From a bacterium (GTDB lineage Bacteria; Planctomycetota; UBA1135; GCA-002686595), in contig JAUIEE010000001.1 of NCBI GenBank assembly GCA_030428965.1, forward strand, positions 1 to 43,104: DNA of 43,104 nt. The letters are read 5' to 3'. This document shows positions 15,936 through 43,104 of this stretch, piece by piece. A program made the position numbers and the translations under genes. How positions within the stretch are numbered: the stretch's first letter is position 1; each line of letters starts with the position of its first letter. Below the pieces are notes generated by a model. The model saw only the letters and a program-made list of their open reading frames with translations. It did not search any database and was not told where the DNA came from.

Positions 15936-16562
15936 TCAGAAGGCGGCCTGCACGGGACGGCACACCCGTTCGAAACGCAGGTTCGCGGACTGCCAGTCGA
16001 TCACCTCGAAGAAGCCCTGCAGGTACTGGGCGCGTCGGTTGCGGTAGCCCAGGTAGTAGGCGTGTTCCCAGACGTCGCAGACCATGAGGGGCGCCGCGCC
16101 CTGGAAGCCCGCGCCGTGATGCCCCTCGACGGACGTCACGATCAATCGGTCCCCGATCGGTTCGTAGGCGAGGATGCCCCAGCCCTCCCTCTCGACGCCT
16201 TCGCACACGCTGAGGAACTGCCGGCGCAGGCCAGCCATGCCCCCGAAGTCGCGCTCCACGGCCCGCGCCAGCTCGCCCACAGGCTTGCCGCCCCCGGCCG
16301 GACTCATCGAGGTCCAGTAGAGGGAGTGCAGCACGTGCGAACTGCCGTGAAACGCGAGCCTGCGATGCAGCGCGGGGAGCTCGGCCGTGCGGTTCTCGCT
16401 GCGCGCCCCGGCGATGGCGGCGAGGGTGGCGTTGAGCTTGCTCACATCGTCCGCGTGATGCTTGTCGTGGTGCAGCTCCAGCATCTCGGCCGTGAGAAAG
16501 CCGTCGAGAGCATCGGGCGAGTAGGGCAGGGAAGGCAGTTCGTAGAGGGTCGGTTTCATCAT
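15936..16562 (-). CDS. Fe/Mn superoxide dismutase
   Basis: YELPSLPYSPDALDGFLTAEMLELHHDKHH at the N-terminus and DVWEHAYYLGYRN near the C-terminus. Metal specificity cannot be read from the sequence. The start is ATG 16562 (MMKPTLYEL...); the rest of the 526-aa ORF is upstream read-through. Confidence 0.9.
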   Translation of the reverse strand: MMKPTLYELPSLPYSPDALDGFLTAEMLELHHDKHHADDVSKLNATLAAIAGARSENRTAELPALHRRLAFHGSSHVLHSLYWTSMSPAGGGKPVGELARAVERDFGGMAGLRRQFLSVCEGVEREGWGILAYEPIGDRLIVTSVEGHHGAGFQGAAPLMVCDVWEHAYYLGYRNRRAQYLQGFFEVIDWQSANLRFERVCRPVQAAF

Positions 16563-16756: not shown

Positions 16757-17230
16757 TCAGGACGAGCGGCTGTCTCCCGCGACCTCGCGCATGCCGCGAA
16801 TCTGTTCGTGGATCTTGCAGATCTGGTCGTACTGGAGAGACAGCAAGGGATGAACGGCGGTACCGACGGTTTCCCTGTCGAGGGCTTCGTAGGCGGATTT
16901 CAGGCGCTCCTCCGAGCGCTCGACTTCCGCCAGGAGCGCGTAGCCCGTATCCGGTGAGACCGTGCTGCGCAGGTCCATCCACCAGTGATGCGCCTTGCCG
17001 AACCAGGTCCCCGAAGTCGGGATGTTCTCCGCGGGCTCCGGCACCTTCTCCTTGAGCTCTTCGACGAAGCGCGCCCGCTGACCGCCGAGCTCGTAGAACA
17101 TGGACTTCAGCGTCGGGTTCTCGGTGATCGCCGCCGCGCGACGGAAGCCGCTGGCGGTGTCCATGTTGATCTGGATCAGCTCGTTCAGATGCTCCATCGC
17201 CGCGGGTTTCAGTTCCATCCAAGTCGCCAT
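16757..17230 (-). CDS. PA2169/DUF2383-family four-helix-bundle (ferritin-like) protein
   Basis: The pattern LNELIQINMDTASGFRRAAAITENPTLKSMFYELGGQRARFVEEL...LLAEVERSEERLKSAYEAL matches this family. The start is ATG 17230 (MATWMELK...). Confidence 0.65.
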   Translation of the reverse strand: MATWMELKPAAMEHLNELIQINMDTASGFRRAAAITENPTLKSMFYELGGQRARFVEELKEKVPEPAENIPTSGTWFGKAHHWWMDLRSTVSPDTGYALLAEVERSEERLKSAYEALDRETVGTAVHPLLSLQYDQICKIHEQIRGMREVAGDSRSS

Positions 17231-17359
17231 CTTCAAAGCGGACCTCCTTGTCGGTGTGGGTTGAGGGCGTGCCCGACGCTTCGACGCCGAGCCACGTGAC
17301 AAGGAGCAAGGGGCATGCCAACCCTCTCCTGGGCCCCTGGGAGACCGATTTCGGGCCTG

Positions 17360-29900: not shown

Positions 29901-31645
29901 GAGAAACGCCCGGCCCCCCAGCCCCGCTCGAGGGCCAGAGGCTCGGCGGCGAAGCGCTTGCGCACCAGGTCGAAGATGCCCGACCAGGTGGCGGGCGTGC
30001 TGCGCGGCGTGCGCCCGATGGGTCGGGCGTCGACCGCCTGGAAACCACCCTGGGGCGCGCCTTCCAGCTCACGGAACGAGCCGGCCGCTCCGCCGGCGAG
30101 GGCAGGCAGGAGGGTCCCGAACACGAGCGAGCTCTTGCCGGCCCCCGACGGACCGCAGACCACGTTGAACGCTCCCAGGCGCACGTCGAGGTCCGCGTCC
30201 CGCAGGTTGTGCAAGCTCGCGCCCCGGAGTCGCAGGTGGGCGTGCCCCTCGCGCCGATTCACCTTCCTCTTCGGCGGGGCACCCAGCGGACCTGCAAGCG
30301 CCTCGCTCGCCTCGAGGGGCCCACTCCCAACGATCTCGCCACCCTCGGCCCCGGCACCCGGCCCCAGCCGAACCAGATGGTCGGCGTGCCGCACCATGTC
30401 GGGATCGTGCTCCACGACCACCAGGGTGTTTCCGAGCTCCCGCAGCTCGTCCAGCACCGTCCGCAGGCCTTCCTGCCCCGACGGATGCAGCCCCAGGGTC
30501 GGTTCGTCGAACGCGATCAGCTGTCGTCCCAGGCCCGCCGTCAACTGCGCCGCAAGCCGCAGACGCTGGCCTTCTCCGCCCGACAGCGTGCCGCTCGGTC
30601 GTTCCTGGGCCAGGTGCCCCAGACCCAGCCGCTGCATGCGCACGAGCCGAAGCTCGATCCCCGGTCGCAGCGCCTCCCGGACCGCGGACTCGGGAAGGTC
30701 CCCCAGGGCCCGCCTCAGCTCCCGCACCGGCATGGCCAGGAGCTGCGGCAAACGCCACTTGCCCACCTGCGATTCCCGCCCGGCCCTCGCCAGACGCGAG
30801 CCTTCGCACGCGCTGCAGGCCACGGTCTCGACGAAGCGCAGGATGTTCGCGTTCCGATTGCGCTCGAGCGTCTCCTGGATGACGGGAACGAGCCCGCGGT
30901 AGTAGCCCTCCTCTCGGGGCCGCGCCGTGATCCCCTCCCAGCGCATGCGCGAGGCGATGCTGTGCTTGCCGAAGGGGACCTTGAGGGCCTTCGTCCCGTA
31001 GAGCACGACGCCCTGCTGCTCGTCCGTCAACCTCTCCCAGGGCGTGTCCACGTCGAAGCCGTGGGCGCGACAGATCTGGTCCATCACCTCCACGGTCACC
31101 TGGCTGTAGACCGTGTAGCCGTTCTTCAGGGTCGGCCGCAGGGCCCCCGCGCGAATCGACCTGGAAGGATCCGCGACGATCTTCTCGGGGGCGACCCGAT
31201 CCTCGAGCCCGAGCCCGCCGCAGGCCTCGCAGGCCCCGAGGGGATGGTTGAAGCTGAAGTGGCTGCGGGTCAGCTGCGTGCCTCCCGGGTCTTCGCCCTG
31301 CCGAGCGAACAAGAGCCGCAGGAGATCCAGGACCCCGCTCAGCGTTCCCACGGTCGAGCGCGAGCTGTCCGTCGCCGTCTGTTGCCCCACGACGATCGTC
31401 GCCGGCAGCCCGCGCACCTCGTCGAGCGCGGCCCGTCCCAGCTTCCCGTAGAACTGTCGCGCCCGCGCCGACATCCCGCTCAGGAAGCGCCGCTGCCCCT
31501 CCCGCACGATCGTGTCGACGACGAGTGAGGTCTTGCCCGATCCGGAAGGGCCGACGACCGCCGTCCAGCTCCCGAGCGGCAGGTCCAGGTCCACGTGCTT
31601 CAGGTTGTGCTCGTGAGCACCGCGCAGGGAGAGGACCGTGGCCAT
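26930..31645 (-). CDS. Tandem-duplicated UvrA-like ABC ATPase with four nucleotide-binding modules; both halves lack the UvrB-binding domain (class II-like)
   Basis: Four Walker A motifs: [36 protein letters not shown]. Four signature/Walker B pairs: [87 protein letters not shown]. UvrA-type Zn modules are present ([18 protein letters not shown]...[17 protein letters not shown], ...CSDCGGARY). The second half restarts with [19 protein letters not shown] near 29300. The start is ATG 31645 ([18 protein letters not shown]), which aligns with canonical UvrA N-termini. An alternative GTG at 31684 overlaps the MarC stop. Confidence 0.85.
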
Positions 31646-31680
31646 GGACGCAGCGTACTCTCTCCGGTGGTCGAACCCGC

Positions 31681-32310
31681 TCACCCCGGAGCCGTCAGGA
31701 AGAAAGCCCGGATGCCGGTGAGCACACCGGTCACGGCGACGGAGGAAAGGATCAAGCCCATCACGCGGCTGATCACGCTGGCCCCCCCCGGGCCAATGAT
31801 CTTGTTGACCCCGCTCGCCGCCAGCATGAGGACGAGGGTGATCAAGAGCACGGCGATCATGATCGCCGCCGTCGCCACCTGCTCCACCAGACTGAAGCGC
31901 GTGCTCTCCGTCATGATGACGGCCGCCAGCATGGAGCCCGGCCCTGCGATCGAGGGAATCGCCAGCGGGAAGATGGCCGTCTCCGAGTGACCGCGAGCCA
32001 GCCTCGTCTCCGCGTCCGGCTTGCTCTCCCCGAAGATCATCGAGAGGGCAAAGAGGAACATGACGATCCCGCCCGCGACCTGAAAAGCCGACCGGGGAAT
32101 GTTCATCGCGGCCAGCAAGTACTCGCCCCCGACCACGAAGGCCAGGAGCACCAGCGCCGAGACGAGGGTCGCGATCAAGGCGACGCGACGACGCCCCCGG
32201 GAATCGTAGTCCTTGGTGACCGCCAGGAAGACCGGGATCGTCCCGATCGGGTCGATGACGGCAAAGAAGAAGACGAAGGTGGAGACGAGCTGCGCGACGT
32301 ACGGGTCCAT
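31681..32310 (-). CDS. marC: MarC-family (UPF0056) integral membrane protein
   Basis: The pattern [19 protein letters not shown]...[16 protein letters not shown] matches the MarC family, with six hydrophobic segments. The start is ATG 32310 (MDPYVAQ...). Confidence 0.8.
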
Positions 32311-32462
32311 CGGGGCACGATAGCAGCTTCGGGGGCGCACAGAAGCTCGCCCCCCGAGACCCGAGCCGAGATCACGGGACGGGCGGCAACCGAGCAGATA
32401 GGATGGGCGCCACGAGATCGAGGACCGCAGCTCCACCACCCCCGAAACAGCCACCCCACGCC

Positions 32463-32822
32463 ATGGCCACCGCATCCCAGGACGAGCGCATCGCGAAGAT
32501 GACCTTCGCCAGCGTCTACCCCCACTACGTGAACAAGGTCGAGAGGAAGGGGCGCAGCGAACAAGAACTACTGAAAGTGATCCGGTGGCTGACCGGATTC
32601 ACCAAGGCCCAGCTCGACAAGCACATCAAGCAAGAGTCGACCTTCGAAGCCTTCTTCAAGGCCGCCAAGCTCAACCCCAACGCGTCCCTGATCAAGGGCG
32701 TGATCTGCGGCTACCGCGTCGAGGAGATCGAGAACCCTCTGACTCGGAAGACCCGCTACCTGGACAAGCTCGTGGACGAGCTGGCCCGGGGCAAGAAGAT
32801 GGAGAGCATCCTGCGGTCGTAG
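32463..32822 (+). CDS. DUF2200-family small protein
   Basis: [37 protein letters not shown]...[36 protein letters not shown] is the DUF2200 pattern. The start is ATG 32463. The gene is visibly less GC-rich and more Lys-rich than its neighbours. Confidence 0.7.
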
Positions 32823-32923
32823 GGCCGCGGCCCTAAGTCCACGACGGTTGCCCGGACCTTGGCGGCGAACGTGAGCCTACGGCCTCGCAAGGCACCAGGA
32901 GTTCAGCCCTCTCGTCGCCAGCA

Positions 32924-33991
32924 TCAGCCATTCCACTCGAAGAGAACGATCTCGGAGCAGAAGGCGGGCCCCATGGCGACCATGAGCCCCGGCGCTCCCG
33001 GCGCGGGGGCGCCCTCCTCCAGCACGTCGTGAAGCACCATCAGGACGGATGTGCTCGAGAGGTTTCCGTGTTCACCGAGCACCTTCCAGGCATGGCGCAC
33101 GTCACGGTCGTCGAGCCCGAGGCCCGTCCGCATCGCGGACAGGACCTTGGGCCCACCTGGGTGACAGACCCAGGAAGCCACGTCGCTCCTCGACATTCCG
33201 TGAGCATCCAGGAACGCGTCGACGTCCGATGCGAGGCGTTCCTCGGCGATGGTCGGAACGGCCGGTGAGAGCACGATGTCGAATCCGCGCTCGGAGATCC
33301 GCCACCCCATCACGTCCTCGGTGTCGGGATAGAACACTGAACGCGTATCGCGCACCCGGAGGCCTTCGATCCCCATCCGGCGAGCACGCTCTTCGCCAAG
33401 GATGACGACGGCGGCCGCTCCATCCCCGAAGAGACCCGAGGAGATCAAGTTCGCGACGGACGTGTCCTCCGCCTGAAAGGTCAAGGAGCACAGCTCGACC
33501 GACAAGAGGACCGCAACTTGATCGGGATAGGCCTTCACGTAGTCCACGGCCCGGGCGATCCCGGCCGCTCCGGCGACGCATCCGAGCCCGAAGATCGGAA
33601 TGCGCTTGATGTCGCTGCGAAAGCCCATCCGGTTGGCCAGGCGTGCATCGAGCGAGGGGCTCGCGATTCCGGTGATGGAGACGGTGAAGATGGCGTCGAT
33701 GTCCTCCGGCACCAGGCCGATCTTGCTCAGCGCCCCATCGACAGCCGCTTCGCCCAGATCTTGCGAGACGCGGATCCAGTGGTCGTTCGACTCACCGAAG
33801 GTGCGCGCGGAGCCATACTCTTCCAGAGGGAGCGCCAAGTAGCGTGACTCGACCTGGGTGTTGGTATGCAAGGAGGCCAGGCGCGACGCAGCGGCAGGCC
33901 GATCCGCCCAGATCTGTTCCAGCTTCTCGCGAATCTCCTGCTGGCTGTAGCGGTGCTCAGGAAATGCGCGCGATACGGATGCGATTCTCAT
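32924..33991 (-). CDS. Type III polyketide synthase (chalcone/stilbene synthase superfamily, alkylresorcinol/alkylpyrone synthase-like)
   Basis: The catalytic Cys is in IFGLGCVAGAAG, the His in WVCHPGGPKVL and the Asn in GEHGNLSSTSVL. The length is 355 aa. The start ATG 33991 overlaps the upstream stop as ATGA. Confidence 0.9.
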   Translation of the reverse strand: MRIASVSRAFPEHRYSQQEIREKLEQIWADRPAAASRLASLHTNTQVESRYLALPLEEYGSARTFGESNDHWIRVSQDLGEAAVDGALSKIGLVPEDIDAIFTVSITGIASPSLDARLANRMGFRSDIKRIPIFGLGCVAGAAGIARAVDYVKAYPDQVAVLLSVELCSLTFQAEDTSVANLISSGLFGDGAAAVVILGEERARRMGIEGLRVRDTRSVFYPDTEDVMGWRISERGFDIVLSPAVPTIAEERLASDVDAFLDAHGMSRSDVASWVCHPGGPKVLSAMRTGLGLDDRDVRHAWKVLGEHGNLSSTSVLMVLHDVLEEGAPAPGAPGLMVAMGPAFCSEIVLFEWNG

Positions 33992-34728
33992 GAAAACAGT
34001 CTCGGAATGAGGTAGGGCACTCTTCGGCGGTAGGCCTCGAAGTTCGTGCCATAGATAGCCGCAAACCGCCGCTCCTTGTAGAGCGGTCCGATTGCGCAGT
34101 AAGCACCCCAAGCGATCGCAATCGCGAGGTGATCCAGGGTCCACACCGGACCTGTCCACAGGACCAGGGCGAAGCCCAGGTAGATCGGTTGCCGGCAATG
34201 CTTGAAGAGGCCCGTCTCTGGTAGATCCGGGTAGCGAGGCCGTCGTCCGCGCCAGGCAGCCGTCCAGCCAATCCAACCGGTCTGGAGCCCCAGCCCCGCA
34301 TCGAACAAGGCCTTGGCGAGGAAGATCCAGGCAGCGGCGAAGGCCCCGATGTGAATCGTCTCCACGATCCCCGCGGGCCGCCACAGGACGATCCCGGACG
34401 GCGACCAGAGACCGAACGTCAGGCCGATCTGAAGTGCGGCGACGAGCGCATAGGTGGTCGGGGACAGCGAGCTCCGGAGGTCGGCCGGTGCCAGGGCTCC
34501 CAGCACCTTCCGGCCTCGCCGGGTCAGCAGGGCCGAGTGGACCAGGGGGAACTGGATCAGCAGGACCCCGTTGACGACGGCGGCAGCGGCACCATCGAAG
34601 GGCCCGATGCTCCTCTCCATGCCCTTGAGCAGCCCCATGGCCATGAGCGCGACCGCGAAGACGAACAGGCCATGGCACGCCAGTCCGTAGACCAGCGCGA
34701 GGGCACGATGTCGTTCTCCGGTGCTCAT
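33988..34728 (-). CDS. Membrane-embedded ICMT/PEMT-family methyltransferase (SrsB/BpsB-like)
   Basis: Multiple TM helices and the C-terminal motif region GLFKHCRQPIYLGFALVLW...YKERRFAAIYGTNFEAYRRRVPYLIP. An AGGAGG ribosome-binding site lies upstream of ATG 34728. The gene has ATGA overlaps at both ends. Confidence 0.8.
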   Translation of the reverse strand: MSTGERHRALALVYGLACHGLFVFAVALMAMGLLKGMERSIGPFDGAAAAVVNGVLLIQFPLVHSALLTRRGRKVLGALAPADLRSSLSPTTYALVAALQIGLTFGLWSPSGIVLWRPAGIVETIHIGAFAAAWIFLAKALFDAGLGLQTGWIGWTAAWRGRRPRYPDLPETGLFKHCRQPIYLGFALVLWTGPVWTLDHLAIAIAWGAYCAIGPLYKERRFAAIYGTNFEAYRRRVPYLIPRLFS

Positions 34729-35369
34729 GCCCCCTCCTTGACCAGGAAGGCACTGTATCCCGGTCCGCGCCGGGATTCCCGCAAGTGAACCGTCCAGGTG
34801 AAAGCCGTCCGCAAGAGCGCGGGTGACTCCCTGACCAGCAGCTGGACGGTCAGTCCCGATTCCCGGGCGTATTCGTGCAGCTCGTCTGGACGAACGAACA
34901 GCCGCGCATCGTGAGTACCCCGAGGTACGAGACCCAGCCCCTCCGCCACGGTGACGACGGCGACGCGGCTTCGCCAGGTTCGGTCGAAGGTGCTCAGGAA
35001 CATCCGGCCGCCGGGCCGCAACAAGCGCGCGGCCTCCCTGAGAGCCGCCGCGGGATCCGAGAGATGTTCGAGCACGTCGGGCACGACGACGAAGTCGAAG
35101 GCGGCGTCGTGGAGCGGACACCGGTACAGATCCGCACGGAGGAAGCGAACCGACAGCTCACACAACTCGGCCTGTGCCCGGGCGGCCCCGATGCTGGCTC
35201 GACCGAGCGCAGGGAGCGGAAGAAGAAGGTCCGACGCTGCTCCTGGGGACCACTCGACCCTCTCGGAATCGAGGGCAACGGCGCGGTCCTCCCGCGCTAC
35301 GACGCTTGGCGCAATGCATGCGCTGGTCGCAGCCATCATCACGATCAAGGCAAAGTGCTGCCCCATCAT
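34725..35369 (-). CDS. Class I (UbiG-like) methyltransferase-fold protein with a degenerate SAM-binding motif I and a hydrophobic N-terminus
   Basis: The C-terminal two thirds align by eye to UbiG-type methyltransferases (FDFVVVPDVLEHLSDPAAALREAARLLRPGGRMFLSTFDRT...VPRGTHDARLFVRPDEL). Where VLDVGCGGG is expected, the sequence reads RVEWSPGAAS. The N-terminus is MMGQHFALIVMMAATSAC. Confidence 0.55.
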   Translation of the reverse strand: MMGQHFALIVMMAATSACIAPSVVAREDRAVALDSERVEWSPGAASDLLLPLPALGRASIGAARAQAELCELSVRFLRADLYRCPLHDAAFDFVVVPDVLEHLSDPAAALREAARLLRPGGRMFLSTFDRTWRSRVAVVTVAEGLGLVPRGTHDARLFVRPDELHEYARESGLTVQLLVRESPALLRTAFTWTVHLRESRRGPGYSAFLVKEGA

Positions 35370-36493
35370 CTCGAGGCCTCCGGCTTGGAGCGGGCACGCA
35401 GGTGCACCCACACGCGGACCTCGTCGTCCATCGAGATGACCCCGAGCTTGTTCGGAACCGGAACGGCGTAGTCCGTGAGCAGCAGTGGCATTTCGCCCTG
35501 GATCACGAGCCGTCGGCTCTCGTCCACGTGCGCCGTGACGTCCATGCTGACTTCCTGGGTCACGCCCCGGATCGTCATCTGACCTGCCAAGCTTCCGGAC
35601 AGGCTCTGGGTCTCCGCATGGATCTCGTGGGGCGTGAGGCGGGTCGCAACGAACGTCATGCCCGCGAACTCGTTCGCTTGAAGGTGTTCGAGCATGGCTT
35701 CGTCCCGACCTTCGAGCCCGGTATCGAGAGTGCTCACATCGACCTCGACCTGCCCTTCGATGCCCTGATCGGGACGGGAAAGATCGAGGCGAAAGTGCCC
35801 ACGTACCCGGTTCGAGATGCCCGTGAAGTCGTGCAGGGTGCTCTTCGCGTCGAAGCCGACGCGGGACAGATCCTCCAGCAGCTCGAAGGTCTGCGTGCCT
35901 TCGAAGCGGAAGTCGCGGGACGGCAGCTTGAAAGCGAGAAAGCTCCGGCCTGACCTTGCCTCGCTGACGCCCACCTCGGGCATCGGCCGCTCGGCGGCTT
36001 CAGCGGCCCTTGCGTTCTCGGCCACCGGTTGTGCAGGTTCCTCGGCCTCGTGCTCGGCCATCGTTCGAGCGGGCGGACGATCCGCTGCGGCAACCCCCGG
36101 CCCGGGCGAGCCTTCGATCGACTCGAGGCGAGTGAGGACGGAGGCGAGAGCTCCTGAGACTTCGCGCGCTTCGAGCGCCAGAGGAAGGGCAGATTCCAGC
36201 TGCCTGATGCGCTCCTCGAGGCGTGCGCGCTCGATACCCTCGGAGCCGTCCCCGTCCTGCACGGCGCTCGCCAGGAGCCCGAAGTTCTCTTGAATGGAGG
36301 TGACCAGAGCATCGAGGTCACTGGAGAGGGTTTCGAGCCGGTCGTCGAGGAGGGCCAGCTCGTCGTCTCCGCCCTCCGCCGTCGGCTGGACGTTGACCTC
36401 GAAGTGTCCCTTGACCCGGTACCAGGCGTAGCTCCCGGCGACGGTCCACGCCAGGAGCGCAACCACGCCGACGGATTGCAGCGCTTTCTTCAT
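35366..36493 (-). CDS. Membrane-anchored protein with a coiled-coil/acidic linker and a C-terminal YceI-like lipid/polyisoprenoid-binding domain
   Basis: N-terminal anchor MKKALQSVGVVALLAWTVAGSYAWY. The C-terminal ~180 aa carry YceI hallmarks (FDAKSTLHDFTG..., VDVSTLDTGLEGRDEAMLEHL, GQMTIRGVTQEV). It is the first gene of the PKS operon. Confidence 0.7.
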   Translation of the reverse strand: MKKALQSVGVVALLAWTVAGSYAWYRVKGHFEVNVQPTAEGGDDELALLDDRLETLSSDLDALVTSIQENFGLLASAVQDGDGSEGIERARLEERIRQLESALPLALEAREVSGALASVLTRLESIEGSPGPGVAAADRPPARTMAEHEAEEPAQPVAENARAAEAAERPMPEVGVSEARSGRSFLAFKLPSRDFRFEGTQTFELLEDLSRVGFDAKSTLHDFTGISNRVRGHFRLDLSRPDQGIEGQVEVDVSTLDTGLEGRDEAMLEHLQANEFAGMTFVATRLTPHEIHAETQSLSGSLAGQMTIRGVTQEVSMDVTAHVDESRRLVIQGEMPLLLTDYAVPVPNKLGVISMDDEVRVWVHLRARSKPEASR

Positions 36494-36504
36494 ACCCCGC
36501 CCTG

Positions 36505-36520
36505 TGCAACTGGCGGGCCA
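36505..36520 (-). promoter_or_regulatory. Sigma-54 (-24/-12) promoter-like motif TGGCCC-GCCAG-TTGCA, proximal
   Basis: On the minus strand it reads TGGCCCGCCAGTTGCA, with the canonical GG-N10-GC spacing. The -12 element ends 11 nt before the YceI-like ATG, which would imply an essentially leaderless transcript. Confidence 0.35.
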
Positions 36521-36575
36521 AGCGGGCTGAAGGGACCGCTCTTTTGCCCGTGAAGGCGCCAGCTGTGGGCTTCCC

Positions 36576-36590
36576 GCACAAGGGTGGCCA
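36576..36590 (-). promoter_or_regulatory. Sigma-54 (-24/-12) promoter-like motif TGGCCA-CCCTT-GTGC, distal
   Basis: On the minus strand it reads TGGCCACCCTTGTGC, with the GG-N10-GC spacing and a conserved TGC at -12. The predicted leader to the YceI-like ATG is about 70 nt. Confidence 0.35.
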
Positions 36591-36654
36591 GGCCCGAGGC
36601 CCCTGGCAGGTCAAAGCTACCGACGCTGGACCGGTAGGAGTTACCGCTTTCGGC

Positions 36655-38733
36655 ATGGCGCTGCCGAGTTCCCACGGCGGGATGCCCTCCAGCAGGGCAA
36701 GAGACGGGGTGCGCGCCTGGCATGCCCCTTGCACTTGTCGAGCTGTGATCAGGCGAAGAGCTGACTGGACCCGGCTTGCCCTGCTGCTGCCCTGCTTGCT
36801 CGTGGCCGCGGTCGGCAGAGGTCTCTTGAGCGTGGACGTCGAGAACCTCGCGATGAAGTCCGTGGGCACATCGACGGGCTGGCTCGCCTCGCTTCGAGCA
36901 GAACAGTTCGGCCACGATCCGACTCTCTTCCTGCTGGCGAGCCCGCGAGCGCCCGAGGTCCTGGCACCGCTCGACGAACGTGAAGTCGGCCAGTGGATCG
37001 ATTCCCTGCGGGAGCGCCCCGAGGTGTCCGCCCTGCTCGACGCACCCTCTTCGAACCCGGGAGAGCACTGTGTTTCCGTCGCTCTCCGGACGGACGCGGA
37101 GGGGCGGTATGCGGCTTCCGTCGAGAGCTTGAGCGAAGCCGCACGCTCCACGGTCCCGCCGACCTACCGTATCTCGATCGGGGGAGTTCCCGCGGTCGAG
37201 GTGGCGATCGCCAAGGAGATGGGCGCGGAACGCTCCCACCTGCTTCCCATCATCGCAGGGGCCCTGGCCGCGGTGCTCCTGCTCCTCTACCGCAGTCCGG
37301 CCCTCGTCCTCGGCGCCCTGCTGGCCCCACTTGCCGGCGTGTTCTTGCTCGACGGGTTGCAGGGACTCCTGGGCCTCTCGGTGGACCCTGTTTCGGCCCT
37401 GCTGGGTCCGTCGGTCTTGACCGTGGGCGTGGCTTCCAGCGTACACGTGCTGGAGCGCTACAAGCGTTCCCTCCGAGAACAGGTCCCGAAAGCCCTGGCC
37501 AGCGAGCAAGCTGTCCGCCAGCTTCGGCTCCCTCTACTCCTGACGGTGGCCACGACGGTCGCCGGATTCATGGGCCTGCTCACGAGCCCGATACCGGCCG
37601 TGAAGAGATTCGGGCTGCTCGCGTCGGCGGGCATCGTGATCGTCGTCCTCATCACGCTGCTCTGTCTCCCCAGCTTGCTCCGTCTCCTGCACCGGCCGAC
37701 CGTGCAGGATCGCCAGCCGGTTGCCGAACCGGGCGTGGGCCGCTTCCTGCCGACGCGCAGGGCGGCCATCCTCATTCTGGGGGTGTCCGCCTTCCTCGGA
37801 CTGGCAGGGTCGCTCTTCCTCGCGGGAAACCGTGTCGACAGCGACCCGATCCACGTTCTGTCCGCGGACAGTCTCGCCAGACGCGATTCCATCCGCATCG
37901 CCCGCCAGCTCGGGGGCAGCGAGATCTTCGAGCTCCTCCTGCCCCCTGGAGGACCGCCCACTCCGATCGCCTCGATCCAGCTGGCGGCCAAGGTCTCGAA
38001 CCTCGATGGCGTCGTCGGACCCGCAGGGCCGCCTCGTACTTCCGCACAGGGCTACCAGCTCCTGACTTTCCTCCTCGCTCCCCGAGGATCGGCCGCACGG
38101 GAAGCGCTCTTTGCCCGCAGCGAGGCCCTCGCGTCGGAGTCCGGCTGGATCGGAGCTGGAGCCACCGGGCTCTCCGTGCGCGTCGCTCGGGATTCGAACG
38201 ACCTGGTTCGAGGTCAGCGGCGAGGCATTCTGCTGACGCTCGCGGCCCTGTGGTGCGTCATGTCGGTCGGATTCCGCTCGCCCTGGCTCGGGTTGCTCGG
38301 CCTGCTTCCCAACGTCCTCCCGCTCGTGATCCTCCAGGGCTCGATGGGGGCCGTCGGGCGTCCGCTCACCGTCGCTTCCTCCATGATCGGAGCCGTCATG
38401 CTCGGTCTGGTCGTCGACGACACGATTCACCTCCTCCACGCCTATCGCAAAGCCGCGGGAACAGCCCGGCAGCGGGTCGCCGAGGCCCTGGATGCCGTCT
38501 GGCGCCCGATCGTGATCACCACGGTGGTGCTCTGCACGGGCTTCTCGGCCACGTTGCTCGGAGAGCTGAGCGCGACCCGGGAGTTCGGCGCCCTTGCTGC
38601 TGCCACGCTCATCCTGGCGATCCTCGCGGATCTGCTTCTTCTTCCCGCGCTCCTCGTCTGGGCGCGTCCACGTTTGACCCAGCTGCAGAGCGGAGCCTCC
38701 ACATGTATCGAGAACGCGAGTACGACGTCGTAG
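36655..38733 (+). CDS. MMPL/RND-superfamily transporter (12-TM, two-repeat, lipid exporter-like)
   Basis: Two homologous halves each carry a TM bundle with MMPL-type motifs (PIIAGALAAVLLLLYRSP...VSALLGPSVLTVGVASSVH, and LPNVLPLVILQGSMG...MIGAVMLGLVVDDTIHLLH). The start is uncertain: ATG 36655 or in-frame GTG 36745. Confidence 0.8.
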   Translation: MALPSSHGGMPSSRARDGVRAWHAPCTCRAVIRRRADWTRLALLLPCLLVAAVGRGLLSVDVENLAMKSVGTSTGWLASLRAEQFGHDPTLFLLASPRAPEVLAPLDEREVGQWIDSLRERPEVSALLDAPSSNPGEHCVSVALRTDAEGRYAASVESLSEAARSTVPPTYRISIGGVPAVEVAIAKEMGAERSHLLPIIAGALAAVLLLLYRSPALVLGALLAPLAGVFLLDGLQGLLGLSVDPVSALLGPSVLTVGVASSVHVLERYKRSLREQVPKALASEQAVRQLRLPLLLTVATTVAGFMGLLTSPIPAVKRFGLLASAGIVIVVLITLLCLPSLLRLLHRPTVQDRQPVAEPGVGRFLPTRRAAILILGVSAFLGLAGSLFLAGNRVDSDPIHVLSADSLARRDSIRIARQLGGSEIFELLLPPGGPPTPIASIQLAAKVSNLDGVVGPAGPPRTSAQGYQLLTFLLAPRGSAAREALFARSEALASESGWIGAGATGLSVRVARDSNDLVRGQRRGILLTLAALWCVMSVGFRSPWLGLLGLLPNVLPLVILQGSMGAVGRPLTVASSMIGAVMLGLVVDDTIHLLHAYRKAAGTARQRVAEALDAVWRPIVITTVVLCTGFSATLLGELSATREFGALAAATLILAILADLLLLPALLVWARPRLTQLQSGASTCIENASTTS

Positions 38734-39977
38734 TAGCCGGTGCGGGACCGGCGGGCACTCATACGGCCTTGCGATTGGGACGTCTCGGCTGGAGAGTGGC
38801 CCTGATCGACCGCTGCGAGTTCCCGCGCAAGAAGCCTTGCGGTGAGTTCCTGAGCCCCGCCTGCCTGCCGCTGCTGGAGGAGGTGGGACTCCTCGAAGAC
38901 GTGCTGGCGTCCGGCGCGGCGCGTGTCCGGGGAATGGACATCGTGACGTCAGGGCACCGCGCGCGTGGAGACTATCGGTCGATGGGCACCTACTCCCCCC
39001 CTCGAGCGGGTGGAATCGGGATTCGCCGTGAAGTCCTCGACCATCAGGCCGTCGAAGCGGCACGGACCGAGCCGAACATCACGGTGCTTCTCGGCTGGCG
39101 CGTCTCGGGTCCGGTTTCCGGGCCTGAGGGTCGCACGATCGGGCTCTCGGTGATCGACCCGGAGGGCAAGAGAGTCCTGCTGCGTTCCCGCTTCGTCGTC
39201 GGAGCGGACGGACTGCACAGTCGCGTTGCACGCGGCCTGGGCTGGACCGGCAAGTACCCAGGTCCCGCTCGCTTCGCCATCGTCGCCCGCTTCGAGGGAG
39301 TCGATCGTCGCAAGGAAGCGGAGGTGCACATCGTCGGCGGCAACTACTTCGCGGCGTGCCCCATCGACGATGGCTTGTTCACCGCGAACCTGGTGGTCGA
39401 TGGGAATCGCCTCCCCAAGGGGTCCAGCGAGCTCGAACCCTTCTTCCAGCACCATCTTCAGGAAGCGCCGCTCCTCGCGGAACGACTGGCCGGCGCGCAC
39501 CTGAGCGACCCTCTGCTGACCTGCGGCCCGCTCCGGAGCGAGAATCGCCGCTGCACCGGGCCGGGTGCCGCCCTGGTCGGCGACGCGTGCGGCTTCGTGG
39601 ATCCGCTGACCGGGGAGGGGCTCTACTTCGCCATGCGAGGGGCCAGCATGCTGGCTTCGGCGCTCGACCGTGCCTTGGCGGATCCCGCCCGTGAGCCTTC
39701 GGCCCTGCGTCGGTACGACCGGGACAGAAGACGGGACTTTGCTCCGCGTTACGCTCTGGCGCGGCTCCTGCAGCGGGGCCTTCAGCGGCCAGGCGTGCCC
39801 GATCGGGTCGTCGGAGCCCTGGAGCGAATCCCGGCCCTCTGCGACCTCCTGCTCGGTCTGACCGGGGACTACCTGCCCGCGAGAGGCCTTCTCAGTCCTG
39901 GCGTGTGGCGAAGCGCGATTCAGCACGAACGCCCGGCTCCTCGGAACTTGTTCCGCTCGCTGCCGGACGGACAATGA
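38703..39977 (+). CDS. FAD-dependent oxidoreductase (geranylgeranyl reductase / aromatic hydroxylase-like)
   Basis: The dinucleotide fold is YDVVVAGAGPAGTHTALRLGRLGWRVALIDR, and GADGLHSRVAR and LVGDACGFVDPLTGEGL are present. ATG 38703 overlaps the MMPL gene end by 31 nt. Only the last 424 aa of the listed 994-aa ORF are real. Confidence 0.85.
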   Translation: MYREREYDVVVAGAGPAGTHTALRLGRLGWRVALIDRCEFPRKKPCGEFLSPACLPLLEEVGLLEDVLASGAARVRGMDIVTSGHRARGDYRSMGTYSPPRAGGIGIRREVLDHQAVEAARTEPNITVLLGWRVSGPVSGPEGRTIGLSVIDPEGKRVLLRSRFVVGADGLHSRVARGLGWTGKYPGPARFAIVARFEGVDRRKEAEVHIVGGNYFAACPIDDGLFTANLVVDGNRLPKGSSELEPFFQHHLQEAPLLAERLAGAHLSDPLLTCGPLRSENRRCTGPGAALVGDACGFVDPLTGEGLYFAMRGASMLASALDRALADPAREPSALRRYDRDRRRDFAPRYALARLLQRGLQRPGVPDRVVGALERIPALCDLLLGLTGDYLPARGLLSPGVWRSAIQHERPAPRNLFRSLPDGQ

Positions 39978-39984
39978 GCCAACG

Positions 39985-41478
39985 ATGTTTCGCTTCCGGA
40001 CCCTGACCCGGCGCTTTGGCGCCCTGTACGCCGTGGTTGCGACGATCCTGGTCGGAGTCGCCGCGGTCGTGACGATTCATCTCCAGGGCATCAGCGTCGA
40101 TGCCGAGCGGCTCATCGAGGAAGCGCGAGAGCAGGGGGTGACGGTCCGACTCATCACGGAGCTCGACTCCCTGCAAGCCCTGCTGGCGAGACCGGACGCG
40201 ATCGATGATGGGAAGCTCCAGATTGCTCAGGAGTTCCTGGACACCACGCGTTCGGAGCTCTCGATGCTCGAAGGGGACCAGGCGGACCCCTCGCGCCCGG
40301 AGCATCAGCGCTCCGAGGATCGTATCTTCGAGCACCTATCCGCCGACCTGGAGCGTCTGAACGGAATCCTGACGGCGTTCGACCTGGCTGAGGCCCCCGC
40401 GGCCCTGGAGCTCGTTCAAAGCTCCAGGCACTACGCCCAGGTGCTGCGCTCGGAGGCGAGAGAAGAGTCCATCGAAGCGAACCAGGACCTGCAGGGTAGA
40501 GCGAAGTCGACCCGCATCATCCTCGGCGCCACCTGGGTGATGGCGATTCTCCTCCTGGGCCTGGCCCTCGGCCTGATTCAACGGGGTGTCGTGCGTCCTC
40601 TCCGCACCCTGAGGGCGGGAGCAGACCGTTTCGGCCGAGGCGAGAGCGGCCATCGCATCCACGTGGCCAACGTGGACGAGATCGGTGACCTGGCCGTGTC
40701 CTTCAACACGATGGCGGACCGCCTGTCCAGGGCACGAGAAGATCTCGAAGAACGGGTCCGGCAGCGCACGCGGGAGTTCCTCCGTGCTGCGCGCATGGCC
40801 GACCTCGGGCTACTCGCCTCGGGCATCGCCCACGAGATCAACACGCCGCTGGCTTCGATTGCTTCCAGCGCGGAGGGACTCGAGCGGCGGTTGCAGAATG
40901 GCAACCTCCCTCCCCAGCTCCTGCGCGAGTATTCGCAGGTCATCAGCTCGGAGGCCTTCCGCGCGCGCGAGATCACGAGGCGCATGCTCGGCCTGGTCCG
41001 GCAGGAGGCCAGTGAGATCTCGAGGGTCTCGCTCAGCCTCGTCGTCGAGCAGGCCGAGTCCGCACTTCGTCACCGAGCAGCGCAGCGAGACATTCGGATC
41101 GTCTCGAAGCCCGTTTCGGAGGACCTGTATGCCAATGTCAACGCGGGTGAGCTCGTTCAGATCCTGGTCAATCTCCTGGCCAATGCCGTTGATGCTTCGA
41201 CGCAGGGAAGCTCCGTCGAGCTGCGGCTGGAGGTCGAGGACGATTGCCTCGGCTTCGAAGTCTGCGACCAGGGCAGCGGGATCAGCGAGCAGAACCTCGA
41301 ACGCGTCTTCGAACCCTTCTTCACCACGAAAGGGCCGGGCAGCGGCACGGGGCTCGGCCTGGCCTTGGTCGGAACCATGGTGGAAGGACGCGGCGGACAC
41401 ATCTCCGTCGACAGCGAGGTCGGGCGAGGGAGCACCTTCCGCGTGACTCTTCCCATGGACTGGAGCAAATCCGCATGA
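39985..41478 (+). CDS. Sensor histidine kinase (2 TM helices, helical periplasmic sensor, HAMP, HisKA, HATPase_c)
   Basis: TM1 ALYAVVATILVGVAAVV and TM2 IILGATWVMAILLLGLALGL. HAMP is at VVRPLRTLRAGADRF...DEIGDLAVSFNTMADRL. The H-box is LLASGIAHEINTPLASI, the N-box ILVNLLANAVDA, and the G-boxes DQGSGI and GSGTGLGLAL. Confidence 0.9.
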   Translation: MFRFRTLTRRFGALYAVVATILVGVAAVVTIHLQGISVDAERLIEEAREQGVTVRLITELDSLQALLARPDAIDDGKLQIAQEFLDTTRSELSMLEGDQADPSRPEHQRSEDRIFEHLSADLERLNGILTAFDLAEAPAALELVQSSRHYAQVLRSEAREESIEANQDLQGRAKSTRIILGATWVMAILLLGLALGLIQRGVVRPLRTLRAGADRFGRGESGHRIHVANVDEIGDLAVSFNTMADRLSRAREDLEERVRQRTREFLRAARMADLGLLASGIAHEINTPLASIASSAEGLERRLQNGNLPPQLLREYSQVISSEAFRAREITRRMLGLVRQEASEISRVSLSLVVEQAESALRHRAAQRDIRIVSKPVSEDLYANVNAGELVQILVNLLANAVDASTQGSSVELRLEVEDDCLGFEVCDQGSGISEQNLERVFEPFFTTKGPGSGTGLGLALVGTMVEGRGGHISVDSEVGRGSTFRVTLPMDWSKSA

Positions 41479-42836
41479 GGACACGGGTCTTGATCGTAGA
41501 GGATGACAACGCCCTGCGAAGCGTCCTCGAGCGCGAGGTTCGCGCCTTTGGTCATGCCACCGTCGGGCACGCCACCGGCGAGGACGCGCTGGCGTTCGTC
41601 CGTGACAACAAGGTGGACCTTGGCCTGTTCGACCTGAAGCTGCCCGGCATGTCCGGTCTGGAACTCCTCGAAGCCATCCAGGAGATCGTTCCCGGACTAC
41701 CCGTCGTCTTCCTCACGGGGCACGGAACGGTGCCCGATGCCGTACGGGCGATGCGCGCGGGGGCCCACGACTTCCTCGTCAAGCCCGCGCCACTCGATGA
41801 GCTGGAGATGACCCTCCAGAGGGCACTCGAGTACGGTCGGTTAAGAAGGGAGAATCAACTCCTGCGCACGCTGCTGGACCGCGATGTGGCGTCCGAGATC
41901 CTGGGACAAAGCCCGGAGGTGCATGAGCTTGTCCGCTTGATCAGAAAGGTCGCGGCCAGCGAGGCCAACGTCCTCATCTCGGGGGAGAACGGCACGGGCA
42001 AAGAGCTCGTGGCACGGGCCATACACGAGGCGAGCCCGCGAAGCGCATCGTCCTTCATCGTGGTCAACTGCGGCGCCATCCCAGCAGACCTGTTCGAGAG
42101 CGAGCTCTTCGGGCATCGCAAGGGAGCGTTCACCGGTGCCGACCGCAAGCGTCTTGGACTGATCGAGCTGGCGGAGGGCGGAACCCTCTTCCTGGACGAG
42201 GTCGGTGAGCTCCCGCTCCAGCTCCAGCCGGCGCTCCTGCGTGCCGTGCAGTTCGGAGAGTTCCGCCCCGTGGGTGGAGAGCGGACCGAGAAGGCCGATG
42301 TCCGCGTTCTCGCAGCCACGAACCGCGACCTCGAAGACGCCATCGGACAGAAGGAGTTCCGAGAGGATCTCTACCATCGGCTCTCGACCCTCAAGGTGGA
42401 AGTCCCCCCCCTGCGCGCGCGAGAGGGAGACGCGCCGTACCTGGCCCAGAAGTTCCTCGACCGCCAGAACGAGAGATCGGGGACGGAGGCACCCAAGCAG
42501 TTCTCCCCTGCGGCCCTGGCCCGCCTGGCCGACCATGAGTGGACGGGCAACGTTCGAGAGCTCGAGAACGTGGTCGTGCGCCTCGTGACCCTCGTCGAAG
42601 GGTCCACGATCGAAGCGGACGACGTCGATCGCCACGTCAAGTCAGTCGAGAGCAGACCGCGGTCCACGCTCGAGACCCTCGATCTTCAAACGCTCGAGAG
42701 ATCCGCAGTCGTGCAAGCACTCCGAGCCCACTCCGGACATCGCGAAAAGGCCGCAGCCGACCTCGGCGTGGCCGTGAAGACCCTCTACAACAAGATCCGC
42801 CAGCACGGTATCGGCCCCAGAGAATGGGACAGCTGA
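41475..42836 (+). CDS. Sigma-54-dependent response regulator (NtrC-family enhancer-binding protein)
   Basis: The receiver domain has LIVEDD and the phospho-acceptor region LFDLKLPGMSG. The AAA+ domain has GENGTGKE, the sigma-54 contact loop GAFTGA and FLDEVGEL. The C-terminus is a Fis-type HTH (AAADLGVAVKTLYNKI). Its ATG overlaps the kinase TGA as ATGA. Confidence 0.9.
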   Translation: MRTRVLIVEDDNALRSVLEREVRAFGHATVGHATGEDALAFVRDNKVDLGLFDLKLPGMSGLELLEAIQEIVPGLPVVFLTGHGTVPDAVRAMRAGAHDFLVKPAPLDELEMTLQRALEYGRLRRENQLLRTLLDRDVASEILGQSPEVHELVRLIRKVAASEANVLISGENGTGKELVARAIHEASPRSASSFIVVNCGAIPADLFESELFGHRKGAFTGADRKRLGLIELAEGGTLFLDEVGELPLQLQPALLRAVQFGEFRPVGGERTEKADVRVLAATNRDLEDAIGQKEFREDLYHRLSTLKVEVPPLRAREGDAPYLAQKFLDRQNERSGTEAPKQFSPAALARLADHEWTGNVRELENVVVRLVTLVEGSTIEADDVDRHVKSVESRPRSTLETLDLQTLERSAVVQALRAHSGHREKAAADLGVAVKTLYNKIRQHGIGPREWDS

Positions 42837-43015
42837 TCCGTCGCATCACCTAGGCAAGCGGCTCAGCAGCCTTCTTGGGAGCCTTCTTCCCGGCGAGCAT
42901 TCGATTCTCCCACACACGGTGGAGAGCGGCCGCGCTCCCCCCACGCACCTGCCCGATCGGGGTTGCCGGACACGAAAGGCGTCCTCCTGAACTGTGGGCT
43001 AGAATGGACACGAAT

Positions 43016-43104
43016 GTCCCTCCCTGCCTCCGATACTCGAATCCAGAGCCTTGCTTCCGAGATCTTCCAGGGTGCACTCGAGGTCGAGCTCGGCGAGCGT
43101 GAGG
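43016..43104 (+). CDS. Possible 5' end of an unidentified gene running off the window
   Basis: ATG 43016 opens a frame with no stop to the window end (MSLPASDTRIQSLASEIFQGALEVELGER). Composition looks natural, and a TAGAAT -10-like hexamer lies about 12 nt upstream. The fragment is too short to classify. Confidence 0.25.

Follow-up and report, generated by a model that had tools for sequence, protein, structure and literature searches.

A partly degraded 'Saltatorellus ferox'-type alkylresorcinol locus in a planctomycete faces a divergent operon for a predicted lipid exporter and a sigma-54 two-component system

Planctomycetal alkylresorcinols were linked to genes in 2024, in a study that left open the roles of the methyltransferases and the oxidoreductase (Milke et al., PMC10896814). 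In 'Saltatorellus ferox' Poly30, that study described a putative pentacistronic operon (Poly30_13900-13920 and two upstream genes) coding for a lipid/isoprenoid-binding protein, a lipoprotein, the methyltransferases mtr1 and mtr2, and a type III polyketide synthase (PKS), the last of which produced pentadecyl-, heptadecyl-, and heptadecenyl-resorcinols (C15/C17) and ring-methylated forms in Corynebacterium glutamicum (Milke et al. 2024, PMC10896814). A review from 2025 still calls the function of planctomycetal alkylresorcinols unclear. The srsABC operon of Streptomyces griseus also combines a type III PKS with tailoring enzymes, namely, the ICMT-family methyltransferase srsB and the monooxygenase srsC (PMC6669644). 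Here, we analyzed a stretch of 43,104 nucleotides (nt) of planctomycetal DNA (contig JAUIEE010000001.1 of assembly GCA_030428965.1; hereafter, the window; G+C ~65-72%), in which a type III PKS gene ends an operon that diverges from a second operon coding for a transporter, a flavoprotein, and a two-component system.

We found that this region is a member of the 'S. ferox'-type alkylresorcinol locus and not a new kind of system, and that the copy present here is partly degraded. The minus-strand operon, including its YceI first gene and its second methyltransferase, is already known from the 'S. ferox' study (Milke et al. 2024, PMC10896814), so that the sequence-only reading from which our analysis started erred in presenting these two genes as new additions. 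What is not described in the literature searched is the divergent export and regulation operon: Milke et al. (PMC10896814) make no mention of a transporter, export, a two-component system, sigma-54, or a divergent operon for a resistance-nodulation-division (RND) transporter, a flavin adenine dinucleotide (FAD) enzyme, a kinase, and an activator; the 2025 review likewise mentions no transporter, two-component system, or sigma-54; and literature searches for YceI with type III PKS and for alkylresorcinol with MMPL returned no paper and nothing relevant, respectively. We consider it rather likely that the locus consists of two divergent sigma-54 operons with common palindromes, dedicated to the synthesis, modification, and export of an alkylresorcinol lipid. 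The genes are as follows.

32924-33991, minus strand: type III PKS, probable long-chain alkylresorcinol synthase (Pfam Chal_sti_synt_N/C)
33988-34728, minus strand: multi-pass membrane methyltransferase of the ICMT/MddA superfamily, mtr2 equivalent (NCBIfam, profile, and mtr2Sf matches)
34725-35369, minus strand: chimeric open reading frame (ORF) made of a lipoprotein remnant and a remnant of a UbiG-like methyltransferase (mtr1) (homologue alignments)
35366-36493, minus strand: YceI-like lipid/polyisoprenoid-binding protein (Pfam YceI)
36745-38733, plus strand: HAE3/MMPL-type RND transporter of 662 amino acids (aa), probable lipid exporter (Pfam, NCBIfam)
38703-39977, plus strand: FAD-dependent oxidoreductase, probably a ring hydroxylase (FAD_binding_3)
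39985-41478, plus strand: sensor histidine kinase (HAMP, HisKA, HATPase_c)
41475-42836, plus strand: NtrC-family sigma-54 enhancer-binding response regulator (Response_reg, Sigma54_activat, AAA_lid_14, HTH_8)

All eight ORFs previously claimed for the two divergent units were present at their coordinates, and their domains and junctions were borne out by Pfam and NCBIfam searches and by the sequence itself, in which ATGA overlaps were read at 35366-35369, 34725-34728, and 33988-33991 on the minus strand and at 41475-41478 on the plus strand, together with an MMPL/FAD overlap of 31 nt and a FAD/kinase gap of 7 nt. The start of the transporter gene had to be revised. ATG 36655, which had been taken as its first codon, lies upstream of a conserved sigma-54 promoter (36718-36733), and conservation of the protein, with an N-terminus of the form (M)xxR(R/K)xDWxRLA, begins at GTG 36745; thus, the gene starts at this GTG. 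The cluster carries neither an acyl-AMP (adenosine monophosphate) ligase gene nor an acyl carrier protein gene, and an Rfam scan detected no RNA family in the whole window.

The PKS matched Chal_sti_synt_N and Chal_sti_synt_C at 66.7 bits each (Pfam cutoff, 27), and its Cys138/His277/Asn310 triad was invariant across 13 homologues (alignment A1). Its best match in the PDB was Pks11 of Mycobacterium tuberculosis (4JAO, E = 3e-105), followed by the alkylresorcinol-forming CylI (5e-61). For comparison with 'S. ferox', we used the gene sequences in the supplement of Milke et al., whose noise from optical character recognition (OCR) makes all identities rough; over the OCR-intact segments, the PKS was approximately 50-60% identical to the 'S. 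ferox' t3pks. Homologues at 60-86% identity came almost entirely from metagenome-assembled genomes (MAGs) of Planctomycetota and bear the JGI label 'alkylresorcinol/alkylpyrone synthase'; the 'S. ferox' protein was not among the named PKS homologue matches, which are MAG accessions only. These comparisons place the enzyme in the lipid clade, with long-chain acyl starters as its predicted substrates, and an alkylresorcinol is its probable product, judging from the 'S. ferox' homologue. Both the assignment as a phenolic-lipid type III PKS locus and the expected grouping of the PKS therefore held, since Pks11 is the best solved relative, the closest solved enzymes use long-chain acyl starters, and the operon matches the alkylresorcinol-making 'S. 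ferox' operon.

Regulatory elements were found in the intergenic region between the two operons, as listed below.

36505-36520, minus strand: sigma-54 (-24/-12) promoter of the YceI-to-PKS operon, TGGCCCGCCAGTTGCA, ending 11 nt before the ATG (pattern search)
36718-36733, plus strand: sigma-54 promoter of the MMPL-FAD-kinase-activator operon, TGGCATGCCCCTTGCA, a perfect consensus ending 11 nt before GTG 36745 (pattern search)
36608-36646, no strand assigned: tandem 15-bp palindromes CGGTA-N5-(T/G)ACC(G/T), candidate activator sites common to both promoters (pattern search)

As sigma-54 promoters, we counted matches to TGGCAC-N5-TTGCW with GG-N10-GC spacing and the correct orientation upstream of a gene. 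The pattern occurred five times in the 43-kb window (0.76 expected), and two of these matches lie in the 250-bp intergenic region. Boxes were found in the same place and orientation in seven related contigs, designated here by L numbers (L002, L026, L083, L084, L086, L087, and L089). The spacing to the start codon is 11-12 nt for the YceI ATG and 9-12 nt for the MMPL GTG (the latter in L002, L026, L083, L084, L086, and L087), with the exception of the MMPL box of L089, at 26 nt. A scan of 32400-43104 revealed no sigma-70-like promoter, and terminators there were at chance level. With the usual sigma-54 geometry, the mRNA leaders would be 0-2 nt long, i.e., the transcripts would be nearly leaderless; a literature search combining leaderless, sigma-54, and planctomycetes returned nothing relevant.

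The palindromes, CGGTAACTCCTACCG at 36632-36646 (perfect) and CGGTAGCTTTGACCT at 36608-36622, were recovered by the pattern search and had been missed by a general repeat search, their arms being just 5 nt long. They lie ~100-120 bp upstream of each predicted transcription start. The tandem CGGTA-N5-TACCG motif occupies the same place in the window, L083, L084/85, and L086; L002, L087, and L089 carry a CTTG-N9-CAAG palindrome instead. Comparing the C-terminal 60 residues of the activators from the window, L002, L083, L084, L086, L087, and L089, we observed a recognition helix reading KTLYNKI(R/H/K)QH with the CGGTA-N5-TACCG type and KTLYNKL(E/A)RY with the CTTG-N9-CAAG type. This co-variation of palindrome and helix is suggestive, but the pattern also follows phylogeny; the palindromes probably bind the activator of the cluster. 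The embedding of a kinase and a sigma-54 activator, an earlier observation, is thus backed by two conserved sigma-54 promoters and by candidate activator sites in the shared intergenic region.

Elsewhere in the window, a third perfect sigma-54 box, TGGCATGCCCCTTGCT (17305-17320, minus strand), has 15 nt in common with the MMPL promoter. It is followed by a leader of ~60 nt with an AAGGAGG Shine-Dalgarno (SD) sequence, and then by genes for a DUF2383 (PA2169-like) protein (16757-17233, minus strand) and an Fe/Mn superoxide dismutase (15936-16547, minus strand). This arrangement looks like a sigma-54-dependent oxidative-stress operon. We considered whether the identical 15-mer marks a member of the regulon of the cluster and did not adopt this reading; the promoter has a leader of normal length and stands before DUF2383 and dismutase genes.

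Synteny was established by tblastn and by gene calls on the related contigs. The divergent operon adjoins the PKS operon in about ten contigs of Planctomycetota, and in L002, L083, L086, L087, and L089 the NtrC, kinase, FAD, and MMPL genes lie on one strand, diverging from the YceI-to-PKS genes on the other. The FAD gene follows the activator in L084/85, and the activator is found elsewhere nearby in L009, L021, and L026. Since the outer flanking genes differ in every contig, the conserved block comprises these genes and no others. Identity to the L083 counterparts is 52-76% for all eight proteins of the window, as would be expected for co-inheritance. The anticipated synteny of the two units was thus found, without being universal, because two PKS homologues, one at 82% and one at 63% identity, occur on their own; and the exact eight-gene arrangement proposed before was shared as to its divergent units and not as to its gene count, as relatives such as L083, L086, and L087 carry nine genes. 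About 70 loci of Acidobacteriota, with a PKS of ~55% identity, have the PKS only, mostly followed by a FAD gene at 26-34% identity with the same KxCGE motif. On the contig of one Acidobacteria MAG (L045:2900-5014), a short secreted YceI protein is encoded directly upstream of the PKS, together with a divergent MMPL gene; the triad of YceI, RND transporter, and type III PKS therefore also occurs outside Planctomycetota. On the 7-Mb MAG contig L087 (436-1800), the activator gene as called codes for just 196 aa, and ~760 bp separate it from the kinase gene; its receiver may be frameshifted or truncated.

These comparisons also bear on another reading, in which the plus-strand genes code for an RND efflux pump and a two-component regulator of its own that have no tie to the PKS operon beyond being inherited next to it, the PKS operon being regulated separately. 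RND-plus-two-component modules are common, some PKS homologues lack the unit, and the displaced activators of L009, L021, and L026 would suit such an independent history. Yet adjacency and divergent orientation hold over PKS identities of 55-76% while the outer flanks differ, the YceI promoter is also of the sigma-54 type and has the palindromes in common with the MMPL promoter, the only flavoprotein of the pathway is encoded inside the plus-strand operon, and, independently, L045 has a divergent MMPL gene beside its YceI and PKS genes. We therefore regard an unrelated pump as very improbable and keep to the model of a single locus with two co-regulated operons.

The products of the plus-strand operon fit export, modification, and regulation. 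The transporter has at least 10 hydrophobic segments and matched Pfam MMPL in two stretches (6e-21; 75.2 bits, cutoff 20.5) and Sterol-sensing (9e-10; 39 bits), as well as the NCBIfam models TIGR00921 HAE3 (5e-43) and HpnN-like (2e-22), with scores below the HAE3, HpnN, and actII cutoffs. The kinase comprises two transmembrane segments, a periplasmic domain of ~145 aa, HAMP, HisKA, and HATPase_c. The activator comprises Response_reg, Sigma54_activat (3e-68), AAA_lid_14, and HTH_8, and carries the GAFTGA motif and the Walker A motif GENGTGKE; scores of 229, 91, and 29 bits were obtained among its receiver, AAA+, and HTH_8 domains. Identities to the L083 orthologues were 65% for the transporter, 62% for the kinase (in the same position), and 70% for the activator.

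The FAD protein matched FAD_binding_3 (9e-23; 81.5 bits) and contains GAGPAG, GADG, and GDACGFVDP motifs. Among NCBIfam models, it matched GG-red-SF (2.5e-35) and QhpG (2.5e-32), both below cutoff, and UbiH/UbiF/COQ6 (TIGR01988, 1.9e-23); its best PDB matches were flavin halogenases (8ZOP, 4e-28; CmlS; CndH). A halogenase was considered and rejected, as alignment to 8ZOP and CndH showed Val75 in place of the catalytic Lys and YFAACP in place of WxWxIP. The protein appears to fall within a halogenase/geranylgeranyl-reductase-like branch, and is probably a ring hydroxylase that corresponds to SrsC, HidB, or Fdo, with a reductase role conceivable as the alternative. Its gene is the second of the divergent operon, and on both counts the srsABC-like operon layout proposed earlier did not hold.

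In the minus-strand operon, the YceI protein begins with a hydrophobic anchor at its N-terminus, from which a long helical region and a linker rich in Ala, Pro, and Glu lead to the YceI domain at the C-terminus (residues 208-366; Pfam 5e-18, 66.3 bits, cutoff 23.7; profile positions 6-149 of 150). Its N-terminus, MKKALQSVGVVALLAWTVAG, is conserved in relatives, and its gene comes first in the operon in all cluster-bearing relatives. YceI proteins are known as polyisoprenoid binders. Five relatives (L083, L086, L087, L002, and L009) have nine genes, with a lipoprotein (138-140 aa, no Pfam family) and an intact 237-aa methyltransferase (VxLGCGGG) encoded between YceI and the ICMT-like gene. The lipoprotein family is narrow, with 37 clusters, all of ~140 aa, with an invariant lipobox Cys and an invariant or nearly invariant CIAPSV motif. 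An AlphaFold2 model of this small lipoprotein (predicted local distance difference test score, 90.8) has eight to nine strands, and its top fold matches in the PDB were all lipocalin-like lipid binders: BACUNI_01346, apolipoprotein M with sphingosine-1-phosphate, and ToxS. Judging from these best fold matches, the intact relatives therefore encode two predicted periplasmic beta-barrel lipid binders, namely, YceI and a lipocalin-like lipoprotein.

The ICMT-like protein (33988-34728) has at least three strongly hydrophobic segments and matched mtr2Sf (OCR-noisy reference) with an E value of 2e-40. Neither it nor four orthologues had a Pfam match, for the orthologues even at E = 10, and a PDB phmmer search returned no match. 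NCBIfam MddA matched at 2e-26 (92.7 bits, below the cutoff of 270), and a seven-sequence profile of the family (A3) had a sole structure match, the Methanosarcina ICMT 4A2N (E = 0.003), over the C-terminal SAM (S-adenosylmethionine)-binding region. The C-terminal cofactor motif of ICMT/PEMT-type enzymes, RHPxY...EE, reads RQPIY...KERR in the part aligned to this region of 4A2N, and this form is invariant in seven orthologues. The previous label 'ICMT-family' is thus retained at the level of the superfamily, on the below-cutoff MddA match and the weak 4A2N profile match.

The preceding ORF (34725-35369), which the sequence-only reading had taken for a degenerate methyltransferase unable to bind SAM, proved to be composite. 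Class I methyltransferase models matched it solely through their C-terminal two-thirds (Methyltransf_11 positions 33-94; UbiG positions 83-203). Residues 1-48 correspond to the beginning of the lipoprotein found in relatives (138-140 aa), covering its signal peptide, its lipobox Cys, and ~30 mature residues, and residues 59-214 align with positions 82-237 of the methyltransferase in its intact form (237 aa; E = 1e-69, alignment A2); the latter fragment matched mtr1Sf, again an OCR-noisy reference, at E = 3e-17. Two of its parts were delimited as follows.

35226-35369, minus strand: lipoprotein remnant with signal peptide, lipobox Cys18 (SAC|IAPSVV), and ~30 mature residues (65% identity to residues 16-46 of the L083 lipoprotein)
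35200-35225, minus strand: 26-nt island from the N-terminal part of the methyltransferase (DRFFRSLRSVG motif), whose out-of-frame reading here is LLPLPALGR, between the deletion junctions (blastn)

The island is 88-92% identical to nt 69-94 of the methyltransferase genes of L091 and L083 (blastn). At the DNA level, we used L091, the contig with the closest intact methyltransferase, as the reference: nt 44-90 of the fusion are collinear with nt 26-72 of the lipoprotein gene, nt 145-170 with nt 69-94 of the methyltransferase gene, and nt 225-635, in frame, with nt 294-704 of the methyltransferase gene. The offsets imply two deletions, of ~340 nt and ~145 nt, each 1 mod 3 (i.e., each shifting the frame by one), which together bring back the frame, so that the ORF runs on to the ATGA at which the next gene starts. 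The chimera is missing the N-terminal 81-83 residues of the methyltransferase family and, with them, VxLGCGGG (motif I) and VxGxDxS (with the post-I acidic residue), both of which all relatives have. In a collection of 5.8 billion proteins, its 106 homologues were intact methyltransferases covering 34-90% of the chimera (most ~55-78%), none of them (0/106) with the chimeric architecture, and by exact look-up no other assembly encodes the same protein. Because three collinear pieces could be traced and all homologues have an intact methyltransferase, the ORF reads as deletion debris: its SAM-binding half is gone through deletion, and, on these alignments, it is not a specialized SAM-free paralogue. 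The earlier claim accordingly stood in the absence of SAM motif I and failed in treating the protein as an evolved addition, since it is the remnant of a two-gene fusion unique among 106 homologues. It is a reasonable idea that the open chimeric frame may serve to keep the ICMT-like gene and the PKS translationally coupled. For annotation, the case is a caution: what looks like a cofactor-less enzyme homologue can be no more than the debris of deletions, its frame kept open within an operon with translational coupling.

Gene loss is not confined to the window. In L084/85, L089, L026, and L090 (the closest PKS relative, at 86%), the lipoprotein gene is directly followed by the PKS gene, with no methyltransferase genes. 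From these comparisons, methyltransferase loss is recurrent in the lineage, and only in the window is the lipoprotein broken as well. One might accordingly view the locus as a decaying, non-functional relic, whose other genes look intact because the deletions are recent; two independent deletions in one operon, a chimera without parallel among 106 homologues, the retention of the lipoprotein in every other cluster-bearing relative, and the repeated gene loss in this operon would all be in keeping with decay. Against this stand the other seven genes, which are full length with intact catalytic motifs, the agreement of both promoters and of the palindromes with their consensus, and deletions that jointly restore the frame, which would be anticipated were selection still acting to maintain expression of the methyltransferase and the PKS encoded downstream. 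On balance, we think it unlikely that the locus is a relic.

That the chimera is instead an artefact of metagenome assembly, the real genome having an intact lipoprotein and mtr1, would agree with the occurrence of the fused protein in no other assembly and with the short reach of L001 (1.7 kb), the sole independent contig from this strain, which stops before the junctions. Two separate, jointly frame-restoring deletions around an out-of-frame island of 26 nt are, however, atypical of assembler errors, and no flanking repeats were found, so we give an assembly error hardly any weight and treat the two deletions as real.

In the mechanism that we propose, the membrane histidine kinase would sense an envelope or periplasmic cue and phosphorylate the NtrC-type activator, which would bind the tandem CGGTA-N5-TACCG sites and switch on both sigma-54 promoters, that of its own operon included. 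The PKS would then condense a long-chain acyl-coenzyme A (CoA) with three malonyl- or methylmalonyl-CoA units to 5-alkylresorcinols, as shown for the 'S. ferox' homologue. The FAD enzyme would hydroxylate the ring and the ICMT-type enzyme would methylate it, with the UbiG-like enzyme adding a further methyl group in intact relatives; a hierridin- or alkylquinone-like product would be expected. By analogy with MmpL/LppX and HpnN, the RND transporter would take the lipid from the inner membrane to the anchored YceI protein, the lipocalin-like lipoprotein would join in where it is intact, and the lipid would end up in the outer membrane or the medium. In the window genome, the two deletions would have destroyed the lipoprotein and the UbiG-like methyltransferase, leaving the open chimeric ORF up to the ATGA of the next gene. 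In broader terms, we tentatively propose, as a possibility that we would not yet call probable, that 'Saltatorellus'-type Planctomycetota have a signal-inducible envelope-lipid pathway with back-to-back sigma-54 promoters, near-leaderless mRNAs, and an RND/YceI/lipocalin-like relay to the outer membrane or the outside.

A different destination for the lipid should be weighed here. In Mycobacterium smegmatis, an operon for a type III PKS, a methyltransferase, and an oxidoreductase reportedly makes polyketide quinones that serve as alternative respiratory electron carriers, and the products of the present locus might likewise be membrane-resident polyketide quinones, with YceI and the RND transporter handling the quinone inside the envelope. 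The tailoring set is ubiquinone-like (a UbiG-like methyltransferase matching TIGR01983 at 1.5e-21, and the FAD enzyme with its UbiH/UbiF/COQ6 match), the YceI family binds polyisoprenoids, and the PKS is closest to the mycobacterial Pks11. Conversely, a dedicated RND transporter and two periplasmic lipid-binding proteins point to movement out of the inner membrane, the repeated methyltransferase loss (L084, L089, L090, and L026) sits badly with a redox head group that is essential, and the FAD protein scores higher against the geranylgeranyl reductase model, QhpG, and halogenase structures than against Ubi hydroxylases. We hence consider respiratory quinones a decidedly unlikely outcome and favor the export of an alkylresorcinol lipid.

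Several points weigh against this preferred model. Addition of mtr1 and mtr2 to the 'S. ferox' PKS gave no new product (Milke et al. 2024, PMC10896814); this co-expression omitted the FAD gene, because it belongs to the divergent operon, and the omission may explain the outcome. The window PKS is just ~50-60% identical to the characterized 'S. ferox' enzyme, and its closest solved relative, Pks11, makes alkylpyrones, so that its ring type is not certain. Neither does the PKS strictly need the module, given that two homologues do without it, at 82% identity (the closest on a long contig) and at 63%. An SD-like AGGAG sequence lies in the spacer before the YceI ATG in five of eight loci (AGGAG/GGAGG motifs in the 11-12-nt spacers of the window, at 36494-36504, and of L002, L026, L083, L084, and L087), and these motifs fit a leaderless sigma-54 transcript poorly, because the predicted start would leave them outside the mRNA; the MMPL-side spacers contain no SD-like motif. 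We infer the dependence of both operons on sigma-54 and the activator from conserved motifs, and the start sites and the binding of the activator to DNA are likewise predictions; the export route and the hand-off to YceI and the lipoprotein are proposed by analogy. The fold matches of the lipoprotein were weak (E = 5e-3; template modelling score, 0.45-0.6), and the relay may be crippled here, since the lipoprotein is retained in all other relatives with the cluster and lost in the window.

If the broader proposal above is true, the relay would be to Gram-negative bacteria what the MmpL/LppX routes are to mycobacteria and, as a corollary, the flavoprotein of the divergent operon would be the enzyme missing from the published mtr1/mtr2 co-expression. 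The conserved exporter, the two periplasmic lipid binders, and the dedicated sensor/sigma-54 switch beside an 'S. ferox'-type operon make the inducing signal, the destination of the lipid, and the part of the FAD enzyme in methyltransferase action testable.

The genes flanking the cluster, coding for a DUF2200 protein, a MarC-family protein, and a long UvrA-like protein, appear unrelated to it and to lipid synthesis. Beyond the PKS, the genes for the MarC-family membrane protein (minus strand) and the DUF2200 protein (plus strand) span 31681-32822, and their 5' ends overlap by ~70 nt. They are followed by a gene (26930-31684, minus strand) for a UvrA-like ABC ATPase of 1584 aa with two UvrA DNA-binding stretches, which is far longer than canonical UvrA.

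Among described systems, the 'S. ferox' operon is closest to the minus-strand operon. Gene order and homology are alike, window proteins match mtr1Sf, mtr2Sf, and t3pksSf, and the PKS belongs to a methylmalonyl-accepting, Pks11-like clade; in contrast, the lipoprotein and mtr1 survive in the window solely as one fused, truncated remnant, and the two PKSs differ to the extent given above. M. tuberculosis Pks11 (4JAO) is the closest solved structure, matches over its full length, and uses long-chain acyl starters, but it is named an alpha-pyrone synthase and has another genomic context.

The srsABC operon of S. griseus, hidABC of Cyanobium (hierridin), and mtr-fdo-t3pks of Gimesia maris likewise combine a type III PKS with a methyltransferase and a flavoprotein that tailor alkylresorcinols by methylation and hydroxylation, and SrsB is annotated as an ICMT-family enzyme, of the same superfamily as the mtr2-like protein. 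Unlike the window, in which the flavoprotein is encoded in the divergent operon, these are single three-gene operons without YceI, lipoprotein, RND transporter, or two-component system. In G. maris, moreover, the methyltransferase is unrelated to both methyltransferases of the window, and Fdo is only weakly similar to the FAD protein (31% over 81 aa).

For regulation, the closest parallels are NtrC-family systems with divergent sigma-54 promoters, such as AtoSC and ZraSR. The kinase and the activator best match AtoS/ZraS and NtrC/AtoC, GAFTGA is present, and the palindromes lie ~100 bp from the -24/-12 boxes, whereas all window scores are below equivalog cutoffs and the promoters end ~11 nt before the start codons, implying almost leaderless mRNAs.

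For export, mycobacterial MmpL transporters with lipoprotein carriers (MmpL7/LppX for phthiocerol dimycocerosate) and the hopanoid transporter HpnN exemplify RND transporters encoded beside the biosynthetic genes of their lipid. The window transporter, a predicted exporter, scores far below the equivalog cutoffs and, at 662 aa, is much shorter, and its putative carriers are YceI- and lipocalin-like rather than of the LppX/LprG fold; as in those systems, however, it is encoded beside lipid genes and predicted periplasmic lipid binders, and it matches the MMPL, HAE3, and HpnN models.

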